DNA of 37,766 nt from Escherichia coli (GTDB lineage Bacteria; Pseudomonadota; Gammaproteobacteria; Enterobacterales; Enterobacteriaceae). Both the position numbers and the translations under genes were made by a program. The stretch lies in NCBI RefSeq assembly GCF_003334305.1, contig NZ_QOWS01000031.1, one strand, 5' to 3'. Below, piece by piece: positions 5,076 through 19,117 of this stretch. How positions within the stretch are numbered: the first letter of the stretch is position 1; the number at the start of each line of letters is the position of its first letter. Under the pieces are notes generated by a model. The model did no database searches and was not told the origin of the DNA. It saw only the letters and a program-made list of their open reading frames with translations.

Positions 5076-7475
5076 ATGAAGCTAACCGATGCGGATAATG
5101 CCGCCGATGGCATTTTTTTCCCCGCCCTTGAGCAAAATATGATGGGTGCGGTGTTAATTAACGAAAATGATGAAGTGATGTTTTTCAACCCCGCCGCAGA
5201 GAAGCTCTGGGGGTACAAACGTGAAGAAGTCATTGGCAATAACATTGATATGCTGATTCCGCGGGATTTGCGTCCTGCGCATCCTGAATACATTCGTCAT
5301 AACCGTGAAGGCGGTAAAGCGCGTGTCGAGGGGATGAGTCGGGAGCTGCAGCTGGAGAAAAAAGACGGCAGTAAAATCTGGACCCGTTTTGCGCTATCGA
5401 AAGTGAGCGCCGAGGGGAAAGTTTATTACCTGGCGCTGGTACGGGATGCCAGCGTAGAAATGGCGCAAAAAGAACAGACTCGACAATTGATTATTGCCGT
5501 TGACCATCTCGACCGACCGGTGATTGTCCTCGATCCGGAACGCCATATTGTGCAGTGCAATCGCGCATTTACCGAAATGTTTGGTTACTGCATTAGCGAA
5601 GCCAGCGGTATGCAGCCCGATACACTCCTGAACATTCCTGAATTCCCTGCCGATAACCGCATTCGTTTACAACAGTTGCTATGGAAAACCGCCCGCGATC
5701 AGGATGAATTTCTGCTGTTGACGCGCACCGGTGAAAAAATCTGGATTAAAGCCTCTATCAGCCCGGTTTATGACGTGCTCGCGCATCTGCAGAACCTGGT
5801 AATGACCTTCTCGGATATCACCGAAGAACGGCAAATCCGCCAGCTTGAAGGCAATATTCTCGCCGCCATGTGCAGCAGCCCGCCATTTCATGAAATGGGG
5901 GAAATCATTTGTCGTAACATCGAATCTGTTCTCAACGAATCGCATGTTTCGCTGTTCGCACTGCGCAACGGGATGCCGATACACTGGGCGTCATCTTCCC
6001 ACGGTGCAGAAGTTCAAAATGCGCAAAGCTGGTCAGCGACCATTCGTCAGCGTGATGGCGCGCCTGCGGGGATCCTGCAAATTAAAACCTCGTCAGGAGC
6101 AGAAACCAGCGCCTTTATCGAACGCGTGGCAGATATCAGTCAGCATATGGCCGCGCTGGCGCTGGAACAGGAAAAAAGCCGCCAGCATATTGAACAACTC
6201 ATCCAATTTGATCCGATGACCGGTCTGCCAAATCGCATTAACCTGCACAATTACCTCGATGACCTGGTCGACAAAGCCGTCTCTCCGGTGGTGTATCTCA
6301 TCGGTGTTGACCATATTCAGGATGTGATTGATAGCCTTGGCTATGCGTGGGCCGATCAGGCATTGCTGGAAGTGGTCAATCGCTTTCGTGAAAAACTCAA
6401 ACCGGATCAGTATCTCTGTCGTATCGAAGGTACGCAGTTTGTCCTCGTGAGCCTGGAAAACGACGTCAGTAACATTACCCAAATCGCCGATGAGCTACGG
6501 AATGTGGTCAGCAAGCCGATAATGATTGACGATAAACCCTTCCCGCTTACCTTGAGTATTGGCATCAGCTACGACGTGGGTAAAAACCGCGATTACCTGC
6601 TCTCCACTGCTCACAATGCAATGGATTATATTCGCAAGAATGGCGGTAACGGCTGGCAGTTCTTCAGCCCGGCGATGAACGAAATGGTAAAAGAGCGTTT
6701 GGTTTTAGGCGCAGCGCTGAAAGAAGCGATTAGCAATAACCAACTGAAACTTGTTTACCAGCCGCAAATCTTCGCAGAAACGGGTGAACTGTACGGCATC
6801 GAAGCCCTTGCGCGCTGGCACGATCCCCAGCATGGTCATGTGCCCCCTTCACGGTTTATTCCTCTCGCAGAAGAGATTGGTGAAATCGAAAATATTGGGC
6901 GCTGGGTCATCGCGGAAGCTTGCCGTCAGTTAGCAGAATGGCGTAGCCAGAATATTCATATCCCGGCGCTTTCCGTTAACTTGTCGGCACTGCACTTTCG
7001 CAGTAATCAACTGCCTAATCAGGTGTCTGATGCAATGCACGCCTGGGGTATTGACGGCCACCAGCTGACGGTAGAAATCACGGAAAGCATGATGATGGAA
7101 CACGATACCGAAATCTTTAAGCGCATTCAGATCCTGCGTGATATGGGCGTGGGCTTATCGGTAGATGATTTTGGTACGGGCTTTTCCGGATTATCCCGCT
7201 TAGTCAGTCTTCCGGTAACGGAAATCAAAATTGACAAAAGTTTTGTCGATCGTTGTCTGACCGAAAAACGCATCCTTGCCTTACTTGAAGCCATTACCAG
7301 CATTGGGCAAAGCCTCAATTTAACCGTCGTGGCGGAAGGCGTCGAAACCAAAGAGCAATTTGAGATGCTACGCAAGATCCACTGTCGCGTTATTCAGGGA
7401 TATTTCTTTTCCCGCCCCCTACCCGCCGAAGAAATTCCAGGCTGGATGAGCAGCGTGTTACCGCTGAAAATCTGA
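5076..7475 (+). CDS. dosP: Heme-PAS oxygen-sensing c-di-GMP phosphodiesterase (PAS-PAS-GGDEF-like-EAL), 799 aa
   Basis: ORF open from 5052 but ATG at 5076 is preceded by GAGGT SD (5064-5068) and gives 799 aa; EAL motif (YGIEALARW) present; recognised as DosP (YddU). Confidence 0.88.
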   Translation: MKLTDADNAADGIFFPALEQNMMGAVLINENDEVMFFNPAAEKLWGYKREEVIGNNIDMLIPRDLRPAHPEYIRHNREGGKARVEGMSRELQLEKKDGSKIWTRFALSKVSAEGKVYYLALVRDASVEMAQKEQTRQLIIAVDHLDRPVIVLDPERHIVQCNRAFTEMFGYCISEASGMQPDTLLNIPEFPADNRIRLQQLLWKTARDQDEFLLLTRTGEKIWIKASISPVYDVLAHLQNLVMTFSDITEERQIRQLEGNILAAMCSSPPFHEMGEIICRNIESVLNESHVSLFALRNGMPIHWASSSHGAEVQNAQSWSATIRQRDGAPAGILQIKTSSGAETSAFIERVADISQHMAALALEQEKSRQHIEQLIQFDPMTGLPNRINLHNYLDDLVDKAVSPVVYLIGVDHIQDVIDSLGYAWADQALLEVVNRFREKLKPDQYLCRIEGTQFVLVSLENDVSNITQIADELRNVVSKPIMIDDKPFPLTLSIGISYDVGKNRDYLLSTAHNAMDYIRKNGGNGWQFFSPAMNEMVKERLVLGAALKEAISNNQLKLVYQPQIFAETGELYGIEALARWHDPQHGHVPPSRFIPLAEEIGEIENIGRWVIAEACRQLAEWRSQNIHIPALSVNLSALHFRSNQLPNQVSDAMHAWGIDGHQLTVEITESMMMEHDTEIFKRIQILRDMGVGLSVDDFGTGFSGLSRLVSLPVTEIKIDKSFVDRCLTEKRILALLEAITSIGQSLNLTVVAEGVETKEQFEMLRKIHCRVIQGYFFSRPLPAEEIPGWMSSVLPLKI

Positions 7476-7672
7476 CAAATTCCTCTCGCCCGCACTCGCG
7501 GGTTTTCATTTAACGTGACACTGTCACTTAAATACTGTGATTTCAGCTACGATTCCGGGAGATTCCTTCCTTAACTTCCCCTCTTGCACCAAAACTGCAC
7601 TACGCTGCACAAATGTTGATCAAAAGTTAAAAAATATAACTTTAAGCCAGCATTCTGGCGCTTATCCCGGCA

Positions 7673-7689
7673 TGGCATGAGATCTGCAT
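7673..7689 (+). promoter_or_regulatory. Candidate sigma-54 (-24/-12) promoter TGGCATG-N4-CTGCAT upstream of ddpX
   Basis: TGGCATGAGATCTGCAT matches consensus TGGCACG-N4-TTGCW at GG and GC with correct spacing; about 45 nt upstream of ddpX ATG; TGCAC repeats at 7585-7610 could be an activator site. Confidence 0.35.
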
Positions 7690-7732
7690 AAGCGGAAAGC
7701 GCAGCAATTTTTGTCTTATACAGGAACCGTTT

Positions 7733-8314
7733 ATGTCGGATACCACCGAACTGGTTGATTTAGCCGTAATCTTCCCTGATCTGGAGATCGAATTGAAATA
7801 CGCCTGCGCTGATAACATCACAGGTAAAGCTATTTATCAGCAAGCGCGTTGTCTGCTACACAAGGATGCGATTACCGCGCTGGCGAAAAGTATCAGTATC
7901 GCCCAGCTGTCAGGCTTACAACTGGTGATTTACGATGCGTATCGCCCACAACAAGCACAGGCGATGTTGTGGCAAGCCTGCCCAGACCCGCAATATGTTG
8001 TTGATGTGACGGTCGGTTCTAATCACAGCCGTGGCACGGCGATCGACCTGACGCTTCGTGATGAGCACGGGAACATCCTCGATATGGGCGCAGGGTTCGA
8101 TGAAATGCACGAGCGCTCCCATGCCTATCACCCTTCCGTCCCGCCCGCCGCTCAGCGCAATCGGCTGTTGCTGAATGCGATAATGACTGGTGGCGGTTTT
8201 GTCGGTATCTCCAGCGAATGGTGGCACTTCGAATTACCCCAGGCAGCGAGTTACCCTCTGCTCGCTGATCAATTCACCTGTTTTATATCCCCTGGCACAC
8301 AACACGTCAGTTAA
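7733..8314 (+). CDS. ddpX: D-Ala-D-Ala dipeptidase (VanX family, Zn-dependent), 193 aa
   Basis: 193-aa ORF with VanX-type motifs (SNHSRGTAIDL, EWWHFE); first gene of ddp cluster. Confidence 0.9.
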   Translation: MSDTTELVDLAVIFPDLEIELKYACADNITGKAIYQQARCLLHKDAITALAKSISIAQLSGLQLVIYDAYRPQQAQAMLWQACPDPQYVVDVTVGSNHSRGTAIDLTLRDEHGNILDMGAGFDEMHERSHAYHPSVPPAAQRNRLLLNAIMTGGGFVGISSEWWHFELPQAASYPLLADQFTCFISPGTQHVS

Positions 8315-8327
8315 TCAGGAAACTGTC

Positions 8328-9878
8328 ATGAAGAGATCGATACCGTTTCGTCCCACATTGCTCGCGCTCGTCCTTGCCACAAATTTCCCGGTTGCGCACG
8401 CCGCCGTACCGAAAGATATGCTGGTGATTGGTAAGGCCGCCGATCCACAAACCCTCGACCCGGCGGTAACAATAGATAATAACGACTGGACGGTGACCTA
8501 CCCGTCTTATCAGCGGCTGGTTCAGTACAAAACGGACGGTGATAAAGGCTCAACCGACGTTGAAGGCGATCTGGCAAGTAGCTGGAAAGCGTCTGACGAT
8601 CAAAAAGAGTGGACGTTCACCCTGAAGGACAATGCTAAATTTGCCGATGGCACACCGGTCACTGCCGAAGCAGTAAAACTCTCTTTTGAGCGGCTACTAA
8701 AAATCGGCCAGGGGCCAGCAGAAGCATTTCCCAAAGATTTAAAGATTGATGCTCCCGACGAACATACGGTGAAGTTTACCCTTAGCCAGCCATTCGCACC
8801 GTTCCTCTACACGCTGGCGAATGACGGTGCATCCATTATCAATCCGGCGGTGTTAAAGGAACATGCGGCGGATGATGCCCGCGGCTTCCTCGCGCAAAAT
8901 ACCGCCGGTTCCGGACCATTTATGCTGAAAAGCTGGCAAAAAGGTCAGCAATTAGTTCTGGTGCCAAATCCGCATTACCCCGGCAATAAACCGAACTTTA
9001 AGCGAGTATCGGTAAAAATTATCGGTGAAAGTGCCTCCCGTCGCCTGCAGCTCTCCCGTGGCGACATTGACATTGCCGATGCGCTGCCGGTGGATCAACT
9101 CAACGCCCTGAAGCAGGAAAATAAAGTCAATGTGGCAGAGTATCCGTCACTGCGCGTTACCTATCTGTATCTGAATAACAGCAAAGCGCCTCTTAATCAG
9201 GCGGATCTGCGTCGGGCCATTTCCTGGTCTACCGATTATCAGGGCATGGTTAACGGCATTCTGAGTGGTAACGGAAAACAGATGCGCGGCCCGATTCCGG
9301 AAGGCATGTGGGGCTACGATGCGACGGCAATGCAATACAACCATGACGAAACGAAAGCCAAAGCCGAATGGGATAAAGTGACGAGCAAACCCACCAGCCT
9401 GACGTTTCTCTACTCCGATAACGATCCGAACTGGGAGCCTATTGCTTTGGCGACACAATCCAGTCTCAACAAGCTGGGTATCAATGTGAAGCTGGAAAAG
9501 CTGGCGAACGCCACCATGCGCGACAGAGTGGGTAAAGGTGATTACGACATTGCGATTGGCAACTGGAGTCCGGATTTTGCCGACCCGTATATGTTTATGA
9601 ATTACTGGTTTGAGTCAGACAAAAAAGGTCTGCCGGGTAACCGCTCGTTCTATGAAAACAGTGAGGTCGATAAGTTACTGCGCAATGCGCTTGCGACCAC
9701 CGACCAGACGCAGCGTACCCGGGACTACCAGCAGGCACAGAAAATCGTCATTGATGACGCTGCTTATGTGTACCTGTTCCAGAAAAACTACCAACTGGCG
9801 ATGAACAAAGAGGTGAAAGGCTTTGTGTTCAATCCCATGCTGGAACAGGTCTTCAATATCAATACCATGAGTAAATAA
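8328..9878 (+). CDS. ddpA: Periplasmic D,D-dipeptide-binding protein (ABC substrate-binding, family 5), 516 aa
   Basis: ORF open from 8190, but ATG at 8328 gives N-terminal signal peptide (MKRSIPFRPTLLALVLATNFPVAHA) and 516 aa; preceded by AGGA. Confidence 0.9.
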   Translation: MKRSIPFRPTLLALVLATNFPVAHAAVPKDMLVIGKAADPQTLDPAVTIDNNDWTVTYPSYQRLVQYKTDGDKGSTDVEGDLASSWKASDDQKEWTFTLKDNAKFADGTPVTAEAVKLSFERLLKIGQGPAEAFPKDLKIDAPDEHTVKFTLSQPFAPFLYTLANDGASIINPAVLKEHAADDARGFLAQNTAGSGPFMLKSWQKGQQLVLVPNPHYPGNKPNFKRVSVKIIGESASRRLQLSRGDIDIADALPVDQLNALKQENKVNVAEYPSLRVTYLYLNNSKAPLNQADLRRAISWSTDYQGMVNGILSGNGKQMRGPIPEGMWGYDATAMQYNHDETKAKAEWDKVTSKPTSLTFLYSDNDPNWEPIALATQSSLNKLGINVKLEKLANATMRDRVGKGDYDIAIGNWSPDFADPYMFMNYWFESDKKGLPGNRSFYENSEVDKLLRNALATTDQTQRTRDYQQAQKIVIDDAAYVYLFQKNYQLAMNKEVKGFVFNPMLEQVFNINTMSK

Positions 9879-9879
9879 C

Positions 9880-10902
9880 GTGACCTTCTGGAGTATTTTA
9901 CGCCAACGCTGCTGGGGGCTGGTGCTCGTGGTGGCGGGCGTCTGCGTGATTACGTTTATTATCTCGCATCTGATCCCTGGCGATCCGGCGCGGTTACTGG
10001 GGGGTGACCGCGCCAGCGATGCTATCGTGGAAAATATTCGCCAGCAACTGGGACTGGACCAGCCACTGTATGTACAGTTTTACCGCTACGTCAGCGACCT
10101 GTTTCATGGTGACCTGGGAACATCCATTCGTACCGGGCGTCCGGTGCTGGAAGAGTTGCGTATATTTTTCCCGGCGACGCTGGAACTGGCTTTTTGTGCC
10201 CTGCTGCTGGCACTCCTGATTGGCATCCCGCTGGGCATACTCTCTGCAGTCTGGCGAAATCGCTGGCTGGATCATCTGGTGCGAATAATGGCCATTACCG
10301 GAATCTCCACACCTGCGTTCTGGCTTGGACTGGGCGTCATTGTGCTGTTTTATGGTCATCTGCAAATTCTTCCCGGCGGCGGAAGGCTTGATGACTGGCT
10401 GGATCCACCAACGCACGTTACCGGCTTTTATCTGCTCGATGCGCTGCTTGAAGGCAACGGTGAAGTCTTCTTCAATGCGTTGCAACATCTCATCTTACCG
10501 GCATTAACGCTGGCGTTCGTTCACCTGGGAATTGTCGCTCGCCAGATCCGCTCAGCGATGCTGGAACAATTGAGTGAAGACTACATTCGTACCGCCCGGG
10601 CCAGCGGCTTGCCCGGCTGGTATATCGTTTTATGTTATGCGCTACCCAATGCGTTGATCCCATCGATTACCGTATTGGGTTTGGCGCTGGGCGATTTGTT
10701 GTATGGCGCAGTGCTCACCGAAACCGTTTTTGCCTGGCCCGGAATGGGTGCATGGGTAGTAACATCAATACAGGCGCTCGACTTCCCGGCAGTGATGGGC
10801 TTTGCCGTCGTGGTTTCATTTGCTTATGTGCTGGTCAACCTGGTGGTGGATTTGCTCTATTTGTGGATTGATCCGCGTATCGGACGTGGAGGTGGTGAAT
10901 GA
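9880..10902 (+). CDS. ddpB: Dipeptide ABC transporter permease, 340 aa (GTG start)
   Basis: GTG start 2 nt after ddpA stop; multi-TM permease of DppB/OppB type. Confidence 0.88.
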   Translation: MTFWSILRQRCWGLVLVVAGVCVITFIISHLIPGDPARLLGGDRASDAIVENIRQQLGLDQPLYVQFYRYVSDLFHGDLGTSIRTGRPVLEELRIFFPATLELAFCALLLALLIGIPLGILSAVWRNRWLDHLVRIMAITGISTPAFWLGLGVIVLFYGHLQILPGGGRLDDWLDPPTHVTGFYLLDALLEGNGEVFFNALQHLILPALTLAFVHLGIVARQIRSAMLEQLSEDYIRTARASGLPGWYIVLCYALPNALIPSITVLGLALGDLLYGAVLTETVFAWPGMGAWVVTSIQALDFPAVMGFAVVVSFAYVLVNLVVDLLYLWIDPRIGRGGGE

Positions 10903-11795
10903 TGCTAAGCGAGGAAACGTCCGCCGTACGCCCACAAAAACAAACGCGATTTAACGGTGCAAAACTGGTATGGATGCTGAAAGGCAGTCCGCTCACCGTG
11001 ACCGGCGCAGTCATCATTGTATTAATGCTACTGATGATGATTTTTTCACCGTGGCTGGCGACGCATGATCCCAACGCCATTGATTTAACCGCCCGCCTTT
11101 TGCCGCCTTCTGCGGCGCACTGGTTTGGCACCGATGAAGTGGGACGCGATCTGTTCAGCCGCGTACTGGTCGGCAGTCAGCAATCAATTCTCGCCGGATT
11201 AGTCGTGGTTGCCATTGCGGGTATGATTGGTTCGCTACTCGGATGTCTATCCGGTGTGCTTGGCGGACGCGCAGACGCCATCATCATGCGCATCATGGAC
11301 ATTATGCTGTCGATTCCTTCGTTGGTACTGACAATGGCACTGGCTGCCGCTCTCGGGCCGAGTTTATTTAACGCCATGCTGGCGATTGCTATTGTGCGAA
11401 TTCCCTTTTATGTGCGCCTGGCGCGGGGGCAAGCATTAGTTGTACGCCAGTATACTTATGTTCAGGCGGCGAAAACCTTTGGCGCGTCTCGTTGGCATCT
11501 GATCAACTGGCATATTTTACGTAACTCCCTGCCGCCGCTGATCGTGCAGGCATCGCTGGATATCGGTAGCGCGATTTTAATGGCCGCCACGTTGGGATTT
11601 ATTGGCCTGGGTGCACAACAACCGAGTGCTGAATGGGGCGCGATGGTAGCGAATGGTCGCAACTATGTACTCGATCAGTGGTGGTATTGCGCATTTCCGG
11701 GGGCAGCGATTTTGCTTACCGCCGTCGGGTTTAATCTCTTTGGTGATGGTATTCGCGATCTGCTTGACCCGAAAGCAGGAGGAAAGCAGTCATGA
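10899..11795 (+). CDS. ddpC: Dipeptide ABC transporter permease, 298 aa
   Basis: ATG overlaps ddpB stop (ATGA); DppC/OppC-type permease. Confidence 0.9.
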   Translation: MMLSEETSAVRPQKQTRFNGAKLVWMLKGSPLTVTGAVIIVLMLLMMIFSPWLATHDPNAIDLTARLLPPSAAHWFGTDEVGRDLFSRVLVGSQQSILAGLVVVAIAGMIGSLLGCLSGVLGGRADAIIMRIMDIMLSIPSLVLTMALAAALGPSLFNAMLAIAIVRIPFYVRLARGQALVVRQYTYVQAAKTFGASRWHLINWHILRNSLPPLIVQASLDIGSAILMAATLGFIGLGAQQPSAEWGAMVANGRNYVLDQWWYCAFPGAAILLTAVGFNLFGDGIRDLLDPKAGGKQS

Positions 11796-12778
11796 CCCAA
11801 CCCGTTCTGGACATTCAACAACTGCATTTGAGTTTCCCCGGTTTTAACGGCGACGTTCACGCGCTCAACAATGTGTCCTTGCAGATTAACCGCAGTGAAA
11901 TTGTCGGTCTGGTGGGAGAATCCGGCTCAGGTAAATCAGTCACCGCAATGCTGATTATGCGTCTGCTACCGACGGGCAGTTATTGCGTACATCGAGGGCA
12001 GATTTCACTGCTGGGAGAAGATGTTCTTAACGCTCGGGAAAAACAGCTTCGTCAGTGGCGCGGCGCACGAGTGGCGATGATCTTTCAGGAACCGATGACC
12101 GCCCTCAATCCGACACGTCGAATAGGTCTTCAGATGATGGACGTAATCCGCCATCATCAACCAATAAGTCGTCGGGAAGCCAGAGCTAAAGCGATTGCCC
12201 TGCTGGAAGAGATGCAAATCCCGGATGCCGTGGAAGTTATGTCGCGCTATCCGTTTGAGCTTTCAGGTGGTATGCGCCAGCGGGTAATGATTGCGCTGGC
12301 ATTCTCCTGCGAGCCGCAATTGATTATTGCCGACGAACCGACTACGGCGCTGGACGTCACGCTACAGTTGCAGGTACTGCGTTTGCTTAAACATAAAGCC
12401 CGCGCCAGTGGAACTGCGGTACTGTTCATCAGCCATGATATGGTCGTGGTGTCGCAACTGTGCGATAGCGTTTACGTGATGTATGCCGGAAGCGTAATTG
12501 AAAGCGGCGTGACGGCAGACATTATCCATCATCCCCGGCATCCGTATACCATTGGTTTGCTGCAATGCGCACCAGAACATGGAGTACCACGCCAGCCATT
12601 ACCCGCCATTCCAGGGACGGTACCAAACCTCACCCATTTGCCTGAAGGCTGCGCTTTTCGCGATCGTTGCTATGCGGCAGGTGCACAGTGTGAAAACGTC
12701 CCGGCGCTGACAGCGTGTGGTGACAACAACCAGCGCTGCGCCTGTTGGTATCCGCAGCAGGAGGTCATAAGTGTCTAA
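11792..12778 (+). CDS. ddpD: Dipeptide ABC transporter ATP-binding protein, 328 aa
   Basis: Walker A GESGSGKS, ABC signature LSGGMRQR, Walker B IIADEPT; start overlaps ddpC stop. Confidence 0.92.
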   Translation: MTQPVLDIQQLHLSFPGFNGDVHALNNVSLQINRSEIVGLVGESGSGKSVTAMLIMRLLPTGSYCVHRGQISLLGEDVLNAREKQLRQWRGARVAMIFQEPMTALNPTRRIGLQMMDVIRHHQPISRREARAKAIALLEEMQIPDAVEVMSRYPFELSGGMRQRVMIALAFSCEPQLIIADEPTTALDVTLQLQVLRLLKHKARASGTAVLFISHDMVVVSQLCDSVYVMYAGSVIESGVTADIIHHPRHPYTIGLLQCAPEHGVPRQPLPAIPGTVPNLTHLPEGCAFRDRCYAAGAQCENVPALTACGDNNQRCACWYPQQEVISV

Positions 12779-13697
12779 CACGTTATTAACGTTATGCGAC
12801 GTCCATATCAATTTCCCGGCCCGTAAAAACTGGCTTGGTAAAACTACGGAACATGTTCATGCCATTAATGGTATTGATTTACAGATCCGCCGTGGTGAAA
12901 CCTTAGGGATCGTCGGCGAGTCAGGCTGCGGCAAAAGCACCCTCGCACAGCTTTTAATGGGTATGCTGCAACCGAGCCACGGGCAGTACATCCGTTCTGG
13001 CTCACAACGCATTATGCAGATGGTGTTTCAGGACCCGCTCTCTTCGCTCAATCCGCGCTTACCGGTGTGGCGCATCATCACAGAACCGCTCTGGATAGCT
13101 AAGCGTAGTAGTGAACAACAGCGGCGAGCGTTAGCAGAGGAGTTGGCTGTGCAGGTGGGTATTCGTCCGGAGTATCTCGACCGCCTGCCTCATGCGTTCT
13201 CCGGCGGGCAGCGGCAACGCATCGCCATTGCCAGAGCACTCTCTTCGCAGCCTGACGTGATTGTGCTTGATGAGCCAACCTCTGCACTGGATATCTCCGT
13301 GCAGGCGCAGATCCTCAATTTACTGGTAACGCTACAGGTAAATCGCGGGCTGACCTATGTGCTGATCTCACACAATGTCTCGGTGATTCGTCATATGAGC
13401 GATCGGGTAGCGGTGATGTATCTCGGGCAGATTGTAGAACTGGGCGACGCGCAGCAGGTGTTGACGGCACCTGCACATCCATACACCCGATTATTGCTGG
13501 ATTCCCTCCCCGCCATTGATAAACCGCTGGAGGAAGAATGGGCATTACGTAAAACGGATCTGCCGGGAAACCGCACGTTGCCGCAAGGCTGTTTTTTCTA
13601 CGAACGTTGCCCTCTGGCAACCCACGGATGTGAAGTCCGGCAATCATTAACAATAAGGGAGGACGGACGTGAGATCCGGTGCTGGCGGGCGCTGTAG
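12771..13697 (+). CDS. ddpF: Dipeptide ABC transporter ATP-binding protein, 308 aa (GTG start)
   Basis: Walker A GESGCGKS, signature FSGGQRQR, Walker B IVLDEPT; GTG start overlapping ddpD 3' end by 8 nt. Confidence 0.9.
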   Translation: MSNTLLTLCDVHINFPARKNWLGKTTEHVHAINGIDLQIRRGETLGIVGESGCGKSTLAQLLMGMLQPSHGQYIRSGSQRIMQMVFQDPLSSLNPRLPVWRIITEPLWIAKRSSEQQRRALAEELAVQVGIRPEYLDRLPHAFSGGQRQRIAIARALSSQPDVIVLDEPTSALDISVQAQILNLLVTLQVNRGLTYVLISHNVSVIRHMSDRVAVMYLGQIVELGDAQQVLTAPAHPYTRLLLDSLPAIDKPLEEEWALRKTDLPGNRTLPQGCFFYERCPLATHGCEVRQSLTIREDGREIRCWRAL

Positions 13698-13752
13698 AGA
13701 TGCTAACAACGCATCAGGCATTCACGCGCCTGACGCGTCATCCGGCAATGCT

Positions 13753-18463: not shown

Positions 18464-19117
18464 TTATATCCCTTCTTCACTCTCTTTTTTCGCTTCTGCC
18501 TTCTCGATTTCACGATACCAGCGCGGATGGTGTTTCTTCGCCCAGCGACGGCTCACCTTCCCTTCGATCATCCCTTTAATCGACCCTTTCACCCAGAATG
18601 CCATATACATATGGATCAGGATGGCGTGGATCAGGATGATACCCGCAGCCGCGTGGATCAGCAGGCTGTAGCGAACAACCTGCATCGGGAAGTACTGCGC
18701 AAAGTACGGACGCCAGATAATCACCCCGGTCACCAGCAGCACGAAAATCATGCTCATGATCGACCAGAACATCATCTTTTGCCCGGCGTTGTACTTACCG
18801 ACATCCGCCACTTTATGCTCATTGCCTTTCAATACTTCGACAATGTTCAACAGCCACGGAATATCTTTCTTATCCGGGATGTTGTGATGCACAAAACGCA
18901 CAAACATAAACATCAGTGCGACGAAAATCGCAATGCCGAAAAACGGGTGCAAAATGCGTCCCATCTGCGGCGTACCGAAGGTTTGCGTCAGCCATTGCAG
19001 CGTCGGGAAGAAGAACGAAATCCCGGACAGCGCCACCAGGAAGAAGCAAATCACCACGGTCCAGTGACAGGCGCGATCAATAAATTTGGTGCGCACAATC
19101 ATTTTCGACTTACTCAT
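18464..19117 (-). CDS. fdnI: Formate dehydrogenase-N gamma subunit (cytochrome b556), 217 aa
   Basis: Start chosen at ATG 19117 ([15 protein letters not shown]...); overlaps fdnH 3' end by 8 nt; multi-TM heme b protein. Confidence 0.9.

Follow-up and report, generated by a model that had tools for sequence, protein, structure and literature searches.

TGCAC half-sites as a candidate NtrC enhancer of the sigma-54 promoter of the Escherichia coli ddpXABCDF operon

The DNA analysed here (the window) is a stretch of 37,766 nucleotides of Escherichia coli, and the region of interest is the spacer between dosP, which ends at 7475, and the ATG of ddpX at 7733, behind which ddpABCDF follow. The open reading frames and the RefSeq annotation place the ddpXABCDF operon, encoding a D-Ala-D-Ala dipeptidase and an ABC dipeptide transporter, at 7733-13697 on the plus strand (locus tags b1488-b1483 in K-12). 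When compared with complete E. coli genomes, positions 7400-7800 match thousands of them at 99-100%, and the annotation beneath these matches is that of dosP and ddpX. Moreover, bases 7476-7740 are those of MG1655 (K-12) with zero differences, so the experiments published on K-12 carry over directly. A search of Rfam gave no match in the ddpX promoter region.

The ddp promoter and ddpXABCDF together make up a presence/absence cassette of 6,157 bp (6.2 kb) at 7552-13708. Indeed, ddp-less strains are devoid of this interval: the APEC strain E18006 carries 69 bp in its place (locus L093, 5153-5221), with osmC directly after dosP, and the 161-nt ddp regulatory region is missing from about 1,150 of 5,426 complete E. 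coli genomes (about one fifth). As the cassette edge lies at 7552, the complete ddp-specific control DNA must be contained in 7552-7732 (plus strand), from the left end of the cassette to the ATG, which leaves 181 bp for any enhancer. We also noticed a natural deletion in CAVP880 (locus L094, 1495-1625), where a truncated dosC is fused to window position ~7613; dosP and all three of the TGCAC repeats described below are lost, and the -24/-12 element and ddpX are retained. This allele is a ready-made natural version of the locus from which the candidate enhancer has been removed.

The sigma-54 element of the operon is ATGGCATGAGATCTGCA, at 7672-7688 on the plus strand. Its GG (7674-7675) and GC (7686-7687) dinucleotides are exactly one helical turn apart, the spacing of sigma-54 promoters (TGGCAC-N5-TTGCW). 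An earlier note on this DNA, made from the sequence alone, had drawn the element as TGGCATGAGATCTGCAT at 7673-7689, about 45 nt upstream of the ATG; these coordinates are exact, and 44 nt separate the end of the element from the ATG. We carried out the scoring proposed there with a sigma-54 PWM built from 41 published intergenic sigma-54 ChIP-seq sites, ddpX excluded, and 7672-7688 came out as the best match on both strands of the 37.8-kb window. Its score of 15.9 bits equals the median of the 41 real sites, and 0.31 such matches are expected per window by chance. In the two other Escherichia lineages available for comparison (L001 and L002, see below), the segment 7672-7699 shows 0/28 differences in each case. 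A search with the plain consensus TGGCACGNNNNTTGCW, allowing at most two mismatches, returned 7 matches against 8.6 expected by chance; such a search is blind with respect to chance, and the PWM was used instead. A perfect 7-nt inverted repeat, CGCTTAT/ATAAGCG, flanks the element at 7659-7665 and 7688-7694 and may be due to chance.

In sigma-54 promoters, transcription starts 11-12 nt downstream of the GC. Here, the motif geometry, with the GC at -13/-12, and the "Distance 34" entry in Table 1 of Bonocora et al. predict a start at 7699 (plus strand), so that 34 nt of leader would precede the ATG (7733). Our search of the literature for an experimental mapping of the ddpX start by primer extension or 5'-RACE returned none.

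Published work on K-12, whose sequence is identical here, bears out both the sigma-54 promoter and the control by nitrogen limitation and NtrC that the earlier note had proposed. In sigma-54 ChIP-seq, ATGGCATGAGATCTGCA is site OS16, assigned to ddpX with a FAT of 10 and a predicted start 34 nt upstream of the gene (Bonocora et al. 2015, PMC4591121). In nitrogen-starved cells, NtrC ChIP-seq gives a 24-fold enriched peak at ddpXABCDF, of middle rank and similar to that of astC (Brown et al. 2014, PMC4066584). A ddpX probe is shifted in gels by NtrC, by the RpoN holoenzyme and by both together (Shimada et al. 2021, PMC8743547), and we map the primers of this probe to window 7401-7809 (409 bp). 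In the same study, ddpX mRNA rose 104.5-fold on nitrogen depletion, as measured by RT-qPCR, and the authors conclude that activation of ddpX requires both RpoN and NtrC (PMC8743547). Their gSELEX with NtrC alone shows no ddpX peak at the 40% cutoff, and the combination of holoenzyme with NtrC does yield ddpX, at 44% (PMC8743547). For ddpX, the supplement to that study lists primers only, with no motif instance (PMC8743547). Hence the ddpX promoter is already known, and so are the sigma factor, the activator and the physiological signal that govern it. It explains how starving E. coli switches on the uptake and cleavage of D-Ala-D-Ala, a product of cell-wall breakdown, to gain nitrogen, a story present in the literature since 2000-2021. 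The original assignment is credited by later papers to Zimmer et al. (2000) and to Reitzer and Schneider (2001).

Where does NtrC bind? We found no published footprint or mutational mapping of an NtrC site at ddpX. The ChIP-seq window for NtrC at ddpX spans 80 bp and is centred on the start. At glnA, glnH, nac, astC, glnK, rutA and ddpX, we calculate that the NtrC peaks reported by Brown et al. fall no more than ~30 bp from the sigma-54 start, despite mapped NtrC sites located 87-253 bp upstream at these reference promoters. Since the peaks sit on the start at every promoter checked, whatever the distance of the site, the position of an enhancer is not readable from them, and we rejected a placement of the ddpX enhancer from the ChIP-seq peak.

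The ddpX upstream region does contain three direct TGCAC repeats, starting exactly where the earlier note had reported them, at 7585, 7596 and 7606, with spacings of 11 and 10 bp. The distance given there, 65-90 bp, holds as well, as 63-88 bp separate the repeats from the -24 element downstream. These half-sites, TGCACCA, TGCACTA and TGCACAA (7585-7610, plus strand), reach 10.5, 9.0 and 8.0 bits, respectively, as half-sites, and we regard them as a candidate low-affinity NtrC enhancer. They start at -114, -103 and -93 from the predicted start (centres of the corresponding 17-mers at -106, -95 and -85), in the range typical of NtrC enhancers, roughly 80-250 bp upstream of a sigma-54 start. We calibrated our NtrC scan on the MG1655 promoters of glnK, gltI, glnH, potF, rutA, astC, yeaG, nac, argT, yhdW and glnA. 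The consensus scan recovers sites at -140/-108 for glnA, -121/-108 for glnH, -87 for glnK, -152 for nac and -253/-233 for astC. These are the positions of the literature; their return by the scan indicates that the coordinate frame is sound, and the ddpX triplet (-85 to -114) lies inside the range of the mapped sites so recovered.

In the gel-shift probe (7401-7809), the three TGCAC are the only half-sites scoring at least 6.5 bits, and the top two NtrC 17-mers of the probe begin at repeats 1 and 3. Three TGCAC in the same orientation within 26 bp are found at this one place of the window; after Markov shuffling, 1.7% of windows contain such a triple, a figure that covers the clustering alone and not the placement directly upstream of the best sigma-54 site. 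As strong half-sites are confined to the triplet in a probe that NtrC shifts, the triplet is, by elimination, the probable NtrC site, and from the sequence we consider it most probably to be where NtrC binds. In this respect, the proposal of the earlier note that TGCAC marks an NtrC enhancer designates the best candidate of the probe.

The triplet does not qualify as a canonical enhancer. Those of the known enhancers examined that have a recognisable site pair TGCAC with GTGCA 12 bp away, as an inverted pair; ddpX has three TGCAC in one orientation and no GTGCA partner, and the distances between its TGCA cores are 11 and 10 bp instead of 13. The 17-mers at repeats 1, 2 and 3 have 5, 5 and 4 mismatches, respectively, to the consensus TGCACCAnnnTGGTGCA. 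With a symmetric NtrC PWM made from 13 reference sites (9.3-19.7 bits), the full 17-mers at repeats 1 and 3 score 8.4 and 7.3 bits, under all 13 reference sites, which places them 18th and 29th among the 17-mers of the window. The absence of a 17-bp dyad, the single orientation and these scores are the grounds on which we do not call the triplet canonical. Closer to the promoter, the palindromic GCCAGcattCTGGC (7646-7662, plus strand; arms conserved, spacer variable) resembles an NtrC 17-mer weakly (4.9 bits), with its centre at -45.

Scanning one genome per species gave 80 loci with ddpX. Most Enterobacterales have another coding gene immediately before the homologue, which makes the upstream DNA unsuitable for comparison; the usable loci were the two Escherichia lineages, L001 and L002, and two distant ones, L038 (an Enterobacterales MAG) and L072 (Erwinia endophytica), whose promoters were compared by hand. 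L001 and L002 have the same dosP-ddpX arrangement, with DdpX 94% identical. Third codon positions of dosP and ddpX diverge by 33.1% and 29.5% in L001 and by 27.0% and 23.8% in L002, and the spacer segment 7476-7580 diverges by 22.9% and 11.4%, respectively. In the following 152 nt (7581-7732), divergence is 2.6% (4 differences) with L001 and 4.6% (7 differences) with L002, where ~40-48 differences are expected at the third-position rate (P = 1e-19 and 6e-12, respectively). The onset of this conservation is abrupt, ~7 nt before repeat 1, and the TGCAC segment itself (7581-7615) differs at 0/35 positions from L001 and at 1/35 from L002. As the whole 152-bp block is conserved, this conservation is not specific to the TGCAC repeats.

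Both distant promoters have their own strong sigma-54 element before ddpX, CTGGCACAGACGCTGCA in L038 and CTGGCACAGCTTCTGCA in L072, and both share with E. coli a block made of the third TGCAC and TTGAT (CTGCACAAATGTTGATC, 7605-7621, plus strand; CTGCACATTTGTTGATT in L038 and CTGCACATGATTGATC in L072), with the common motif CTGCACA-N3/4-TTGAT. The TGCAC of the block begins upstream of the sigma-54 17-mer, by 66 nt in E. coli, 85 nt in L038 and 102 nt in L072, and such a flexible position would suit an enhancer element. The conserved right half, TTGAT, does not correspond to the half-site of NtrC, and another protein may have a part here. In three Pantoea loci (L054, L074 and L077), ATGCCATGATAACCGCC or a similar sequence is found ~50-60 nt before ddpX, at the position equivalent to -24/-12; with GC in place of GG and CGCC in place of TGCA, it may be related to this promoter and have decayed.

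Between the triplet and the promoter, composition, inverted-repeat search and conservation delimit an A+T-rich spacer (86%) at 7611-7645 (plus strand), with A-tracts and the inverted repeat AAAGTTA-N7-TAACTTT. We presume that it serves as a bending region between enhancer and promoter.

Two other readings of the upstream sequence have to be weighed against NtrC binding to the triplet. Repeats 1 and 2 also compose a sigma-54-like 17-mer, CTTGCACCAAAACTGCA (7583-7599, plus strand), in which the GG is changed to TG, and they could form a second, weak site for the sigma-54 holoenzyme, alongside the NtrC enhancer or instead of it. With 12.9 bits, CTTGCACCAAAACTGCA is the third-best sigma-54 PWM match of the 37.8-kb window and the highest secondary match among 12 NtrC-dependent promoter regions, and the ddpX probe forms 2-3 bands with holoenzyme (Shimada et al. 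2021, PMC8743547). Its G-to-T change is that of the ChIP-verified potF site TATGCACGTTTATTGCA: both are TGCAC-N5-YTGCA with GG changed to TG, at 12.7 bits for potF and 12.9 bits for 7583-7599, and the potF site, which is bound weakly by sigma-54 in vivo (FAT 2), is taken as the promoter of its operon. Unlike that of potF, however, the ddpX look-alike has a much better element 89 bp downstream. The two sites with this same change in the intergenic table of Bonocora et al. have the lowest enrichments (FAT 2-3), and the likeness may simply reflect the resemblance of TGCAC to both GGCAC and TGCA. The single sigma-54 ChIP-seq peak on the main motif is neutral in this matter, since two sites 89 bp apart would probably merge into one peak. 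It is the absence of the conserved GG dinucleotide that leads us to rate a second sigma-54 site as a minority possibility and, on balance, unlikely. We give equally little weight to what such a tandem site could do, namely direct a minor start near 7610 or hold a non-productive holoenzyme in competition with NtrC. The combined arrangement, an atypical enhancer in which NtrC-phosphate would assemble cooperatively on three same-orientation half-sites while the first two double as a weak decoy or secondary holoenzyme site, the two proteins competing over 26 bp, seems to us similarly doubtful.

The other reading starts from the block shared with the distant promoters, CTGCACAnnnnTTGAT(C), which might be read by a protein other than NtrC, with NtrC bound elsewhere or contacting the holoenzyme from solution. 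In the part of the block that L038 and L072 have in common with E. coli, the invariant TTGAT/ATCAA lies outside the NtrC consensus, and in the 17-mer TGCACAAATGTTGATCA the right half is kept as TTGAT and not as GGTGC. Furthermore, the block adjoins the 86% A+T stretch, a typical setting for bend sites in sigma-54 promoters, and NtrC alone gave no ddpX peak in gSELEX. Against this, neither the 181-bp region nor the gel-shift probe contains another NtrC-like site, yet NtrC alone shifts the probe, and we find this reading very improbable. A bending protein such as IHF would be the candidate, recognizing ATCAA-N-TGTGCAG on the opposite strand; but the IHF consensus WATCAANNNNTTR is matched poorly on both strands (2-3 mismatches, read by eye), and our literature search found no link between IHF and ddpX, so that IHF in particular is just as hard to credit.

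The earlier note had also mentioned an RpoS dependence of ddp, and the literature bears this out: ddpXA appears, with values 39/31, in a table of RpoS-controlled genes of the O157:H7 strain EDL933 (PMC2907692). A simple scan found no sigma-70-like promoter in 7400-7800; candidates for a -10-like sequence and a CRP half-site near 7531-7551, read by eye only, lie outside the ddp cassette. The dosCP operon, and with it the production of DosP, is RpoS-controlled. The intrinsic terminator of dosP (7488-7503, plus strand) is a modest one, a 6-bp hairpin and then UUUUCAUUU, with an interrupted U-tract (-10.9 kcal/mol, z = -4.3). The RpoS dependence of ddp is probably indirect, or due to read-through from dosCP past this terminator. 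The terminator is followed by a conserved block (7512-7543), in which TGTGATT comes after a perfect palindrome, GTGACAcTGTCAC (7515-7527). This block does not belong to the ddp cassette, hardly varies among three Escherichia lineages and is also found in strains devoid of ddp.

The explanation that we favour as a whole, and consider likely, joins the known ddpX promoter, NtrC-phosphate bound to the TGCAC half-sites, an A+T-rich bend and an RpoS effect that is indirect or due to read-through. A closed complex would be poised at the promoter, with its start near 7699, and NtrC-phosphate would assemble on the half-sites at -114, -103 and -93, on one face of the helix. The A-tracts of the A+T-rich spacer (7611-7645) would bend the DNA and let the oligomer reach the promoter from ~100 bp. 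As no repeat has a dyad partner, binding of NtrC would be weak and cooperative, which would restrict the firing of the ddp operon to the high NtrC-phosphate of real starvation. The gSELEX data, with ddpX absent for NtrC alone and present for holoenzyme and NtrC together, would fit such weak cooperative binding.

How does this promoter compare with others? The ddpX promoter of K-12 is the same object, with zero sequence difference and an identical OS16 17-mer. The textbook NtrC-activated sigma-54 promoters, glnAp2 and glnHp2, are activated by looping; like ddpX, they have a GG-N10-GC promoter with NtrC sequence ~85-140 bp upstream. The candidate enhancer of ddpX (-85 to -114) overlaps the positions of the glnA (-108/-140) and glnH (-108/-121/-134) sites. 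However, the latter are 17-bp dyads with 1-3 mismatches to TGCACCAnnnTGGTGCA and paired TGCAC/GTGCA, whereas ddpX has no dyad. At the other extreme, argT, potF, yeaG and gltI are NtrC-dependent, and our consensus scan found no site with four mismatches or fewer in the 300 bp upstream of their -24/-12 elements. That of yeaG, ATGGCATGAGAGTTGCT, is near-identical to that of ddpX. In contrast to ddpX and its conserved cluster of half-sites, argT, potF and yeaG have 0-1 TGCAC or GTGCA pentamers. The remaining value of ddpX is as a test case for NtrC activation without a proper dyad, and for nitrogen promoters without recognisable NtrC sites. Its sharp conservation edge, self-contained 181 bp and natural enhancer-deleted allele make it well suited to dissection.

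Elsewhere in the window, the best full NtrC-type 17-mers are TTCACCAGATTGGTGCA at 34438-34454 (15.9 bits) and TGCATCATTTAGGTGCT at 37115-37131 (14.1 bits). The former lies at the 3' end of the open reading frame 33838-34518, presumably narV. Neither stands beside a good sigma-54 site, and both are therefore probably chance matches. The second-best sigma-54 PWM match of the window is ATGGGACGCATTTTGCA, on the minus strand at 18948-18964 (13.8 bits), with GGG replacing TGGC; it is not among the published sigma-54 ChIP-seq sites. Finally, Rfam identifies SECIS_3 (84 bits) on the minus strand at 22414-22472, between the minus-strand open reading frames 20007-22418 and 22467-23054, which we take to be fdnG split at its selenocysteine codon, where SECIS_3 is expected.
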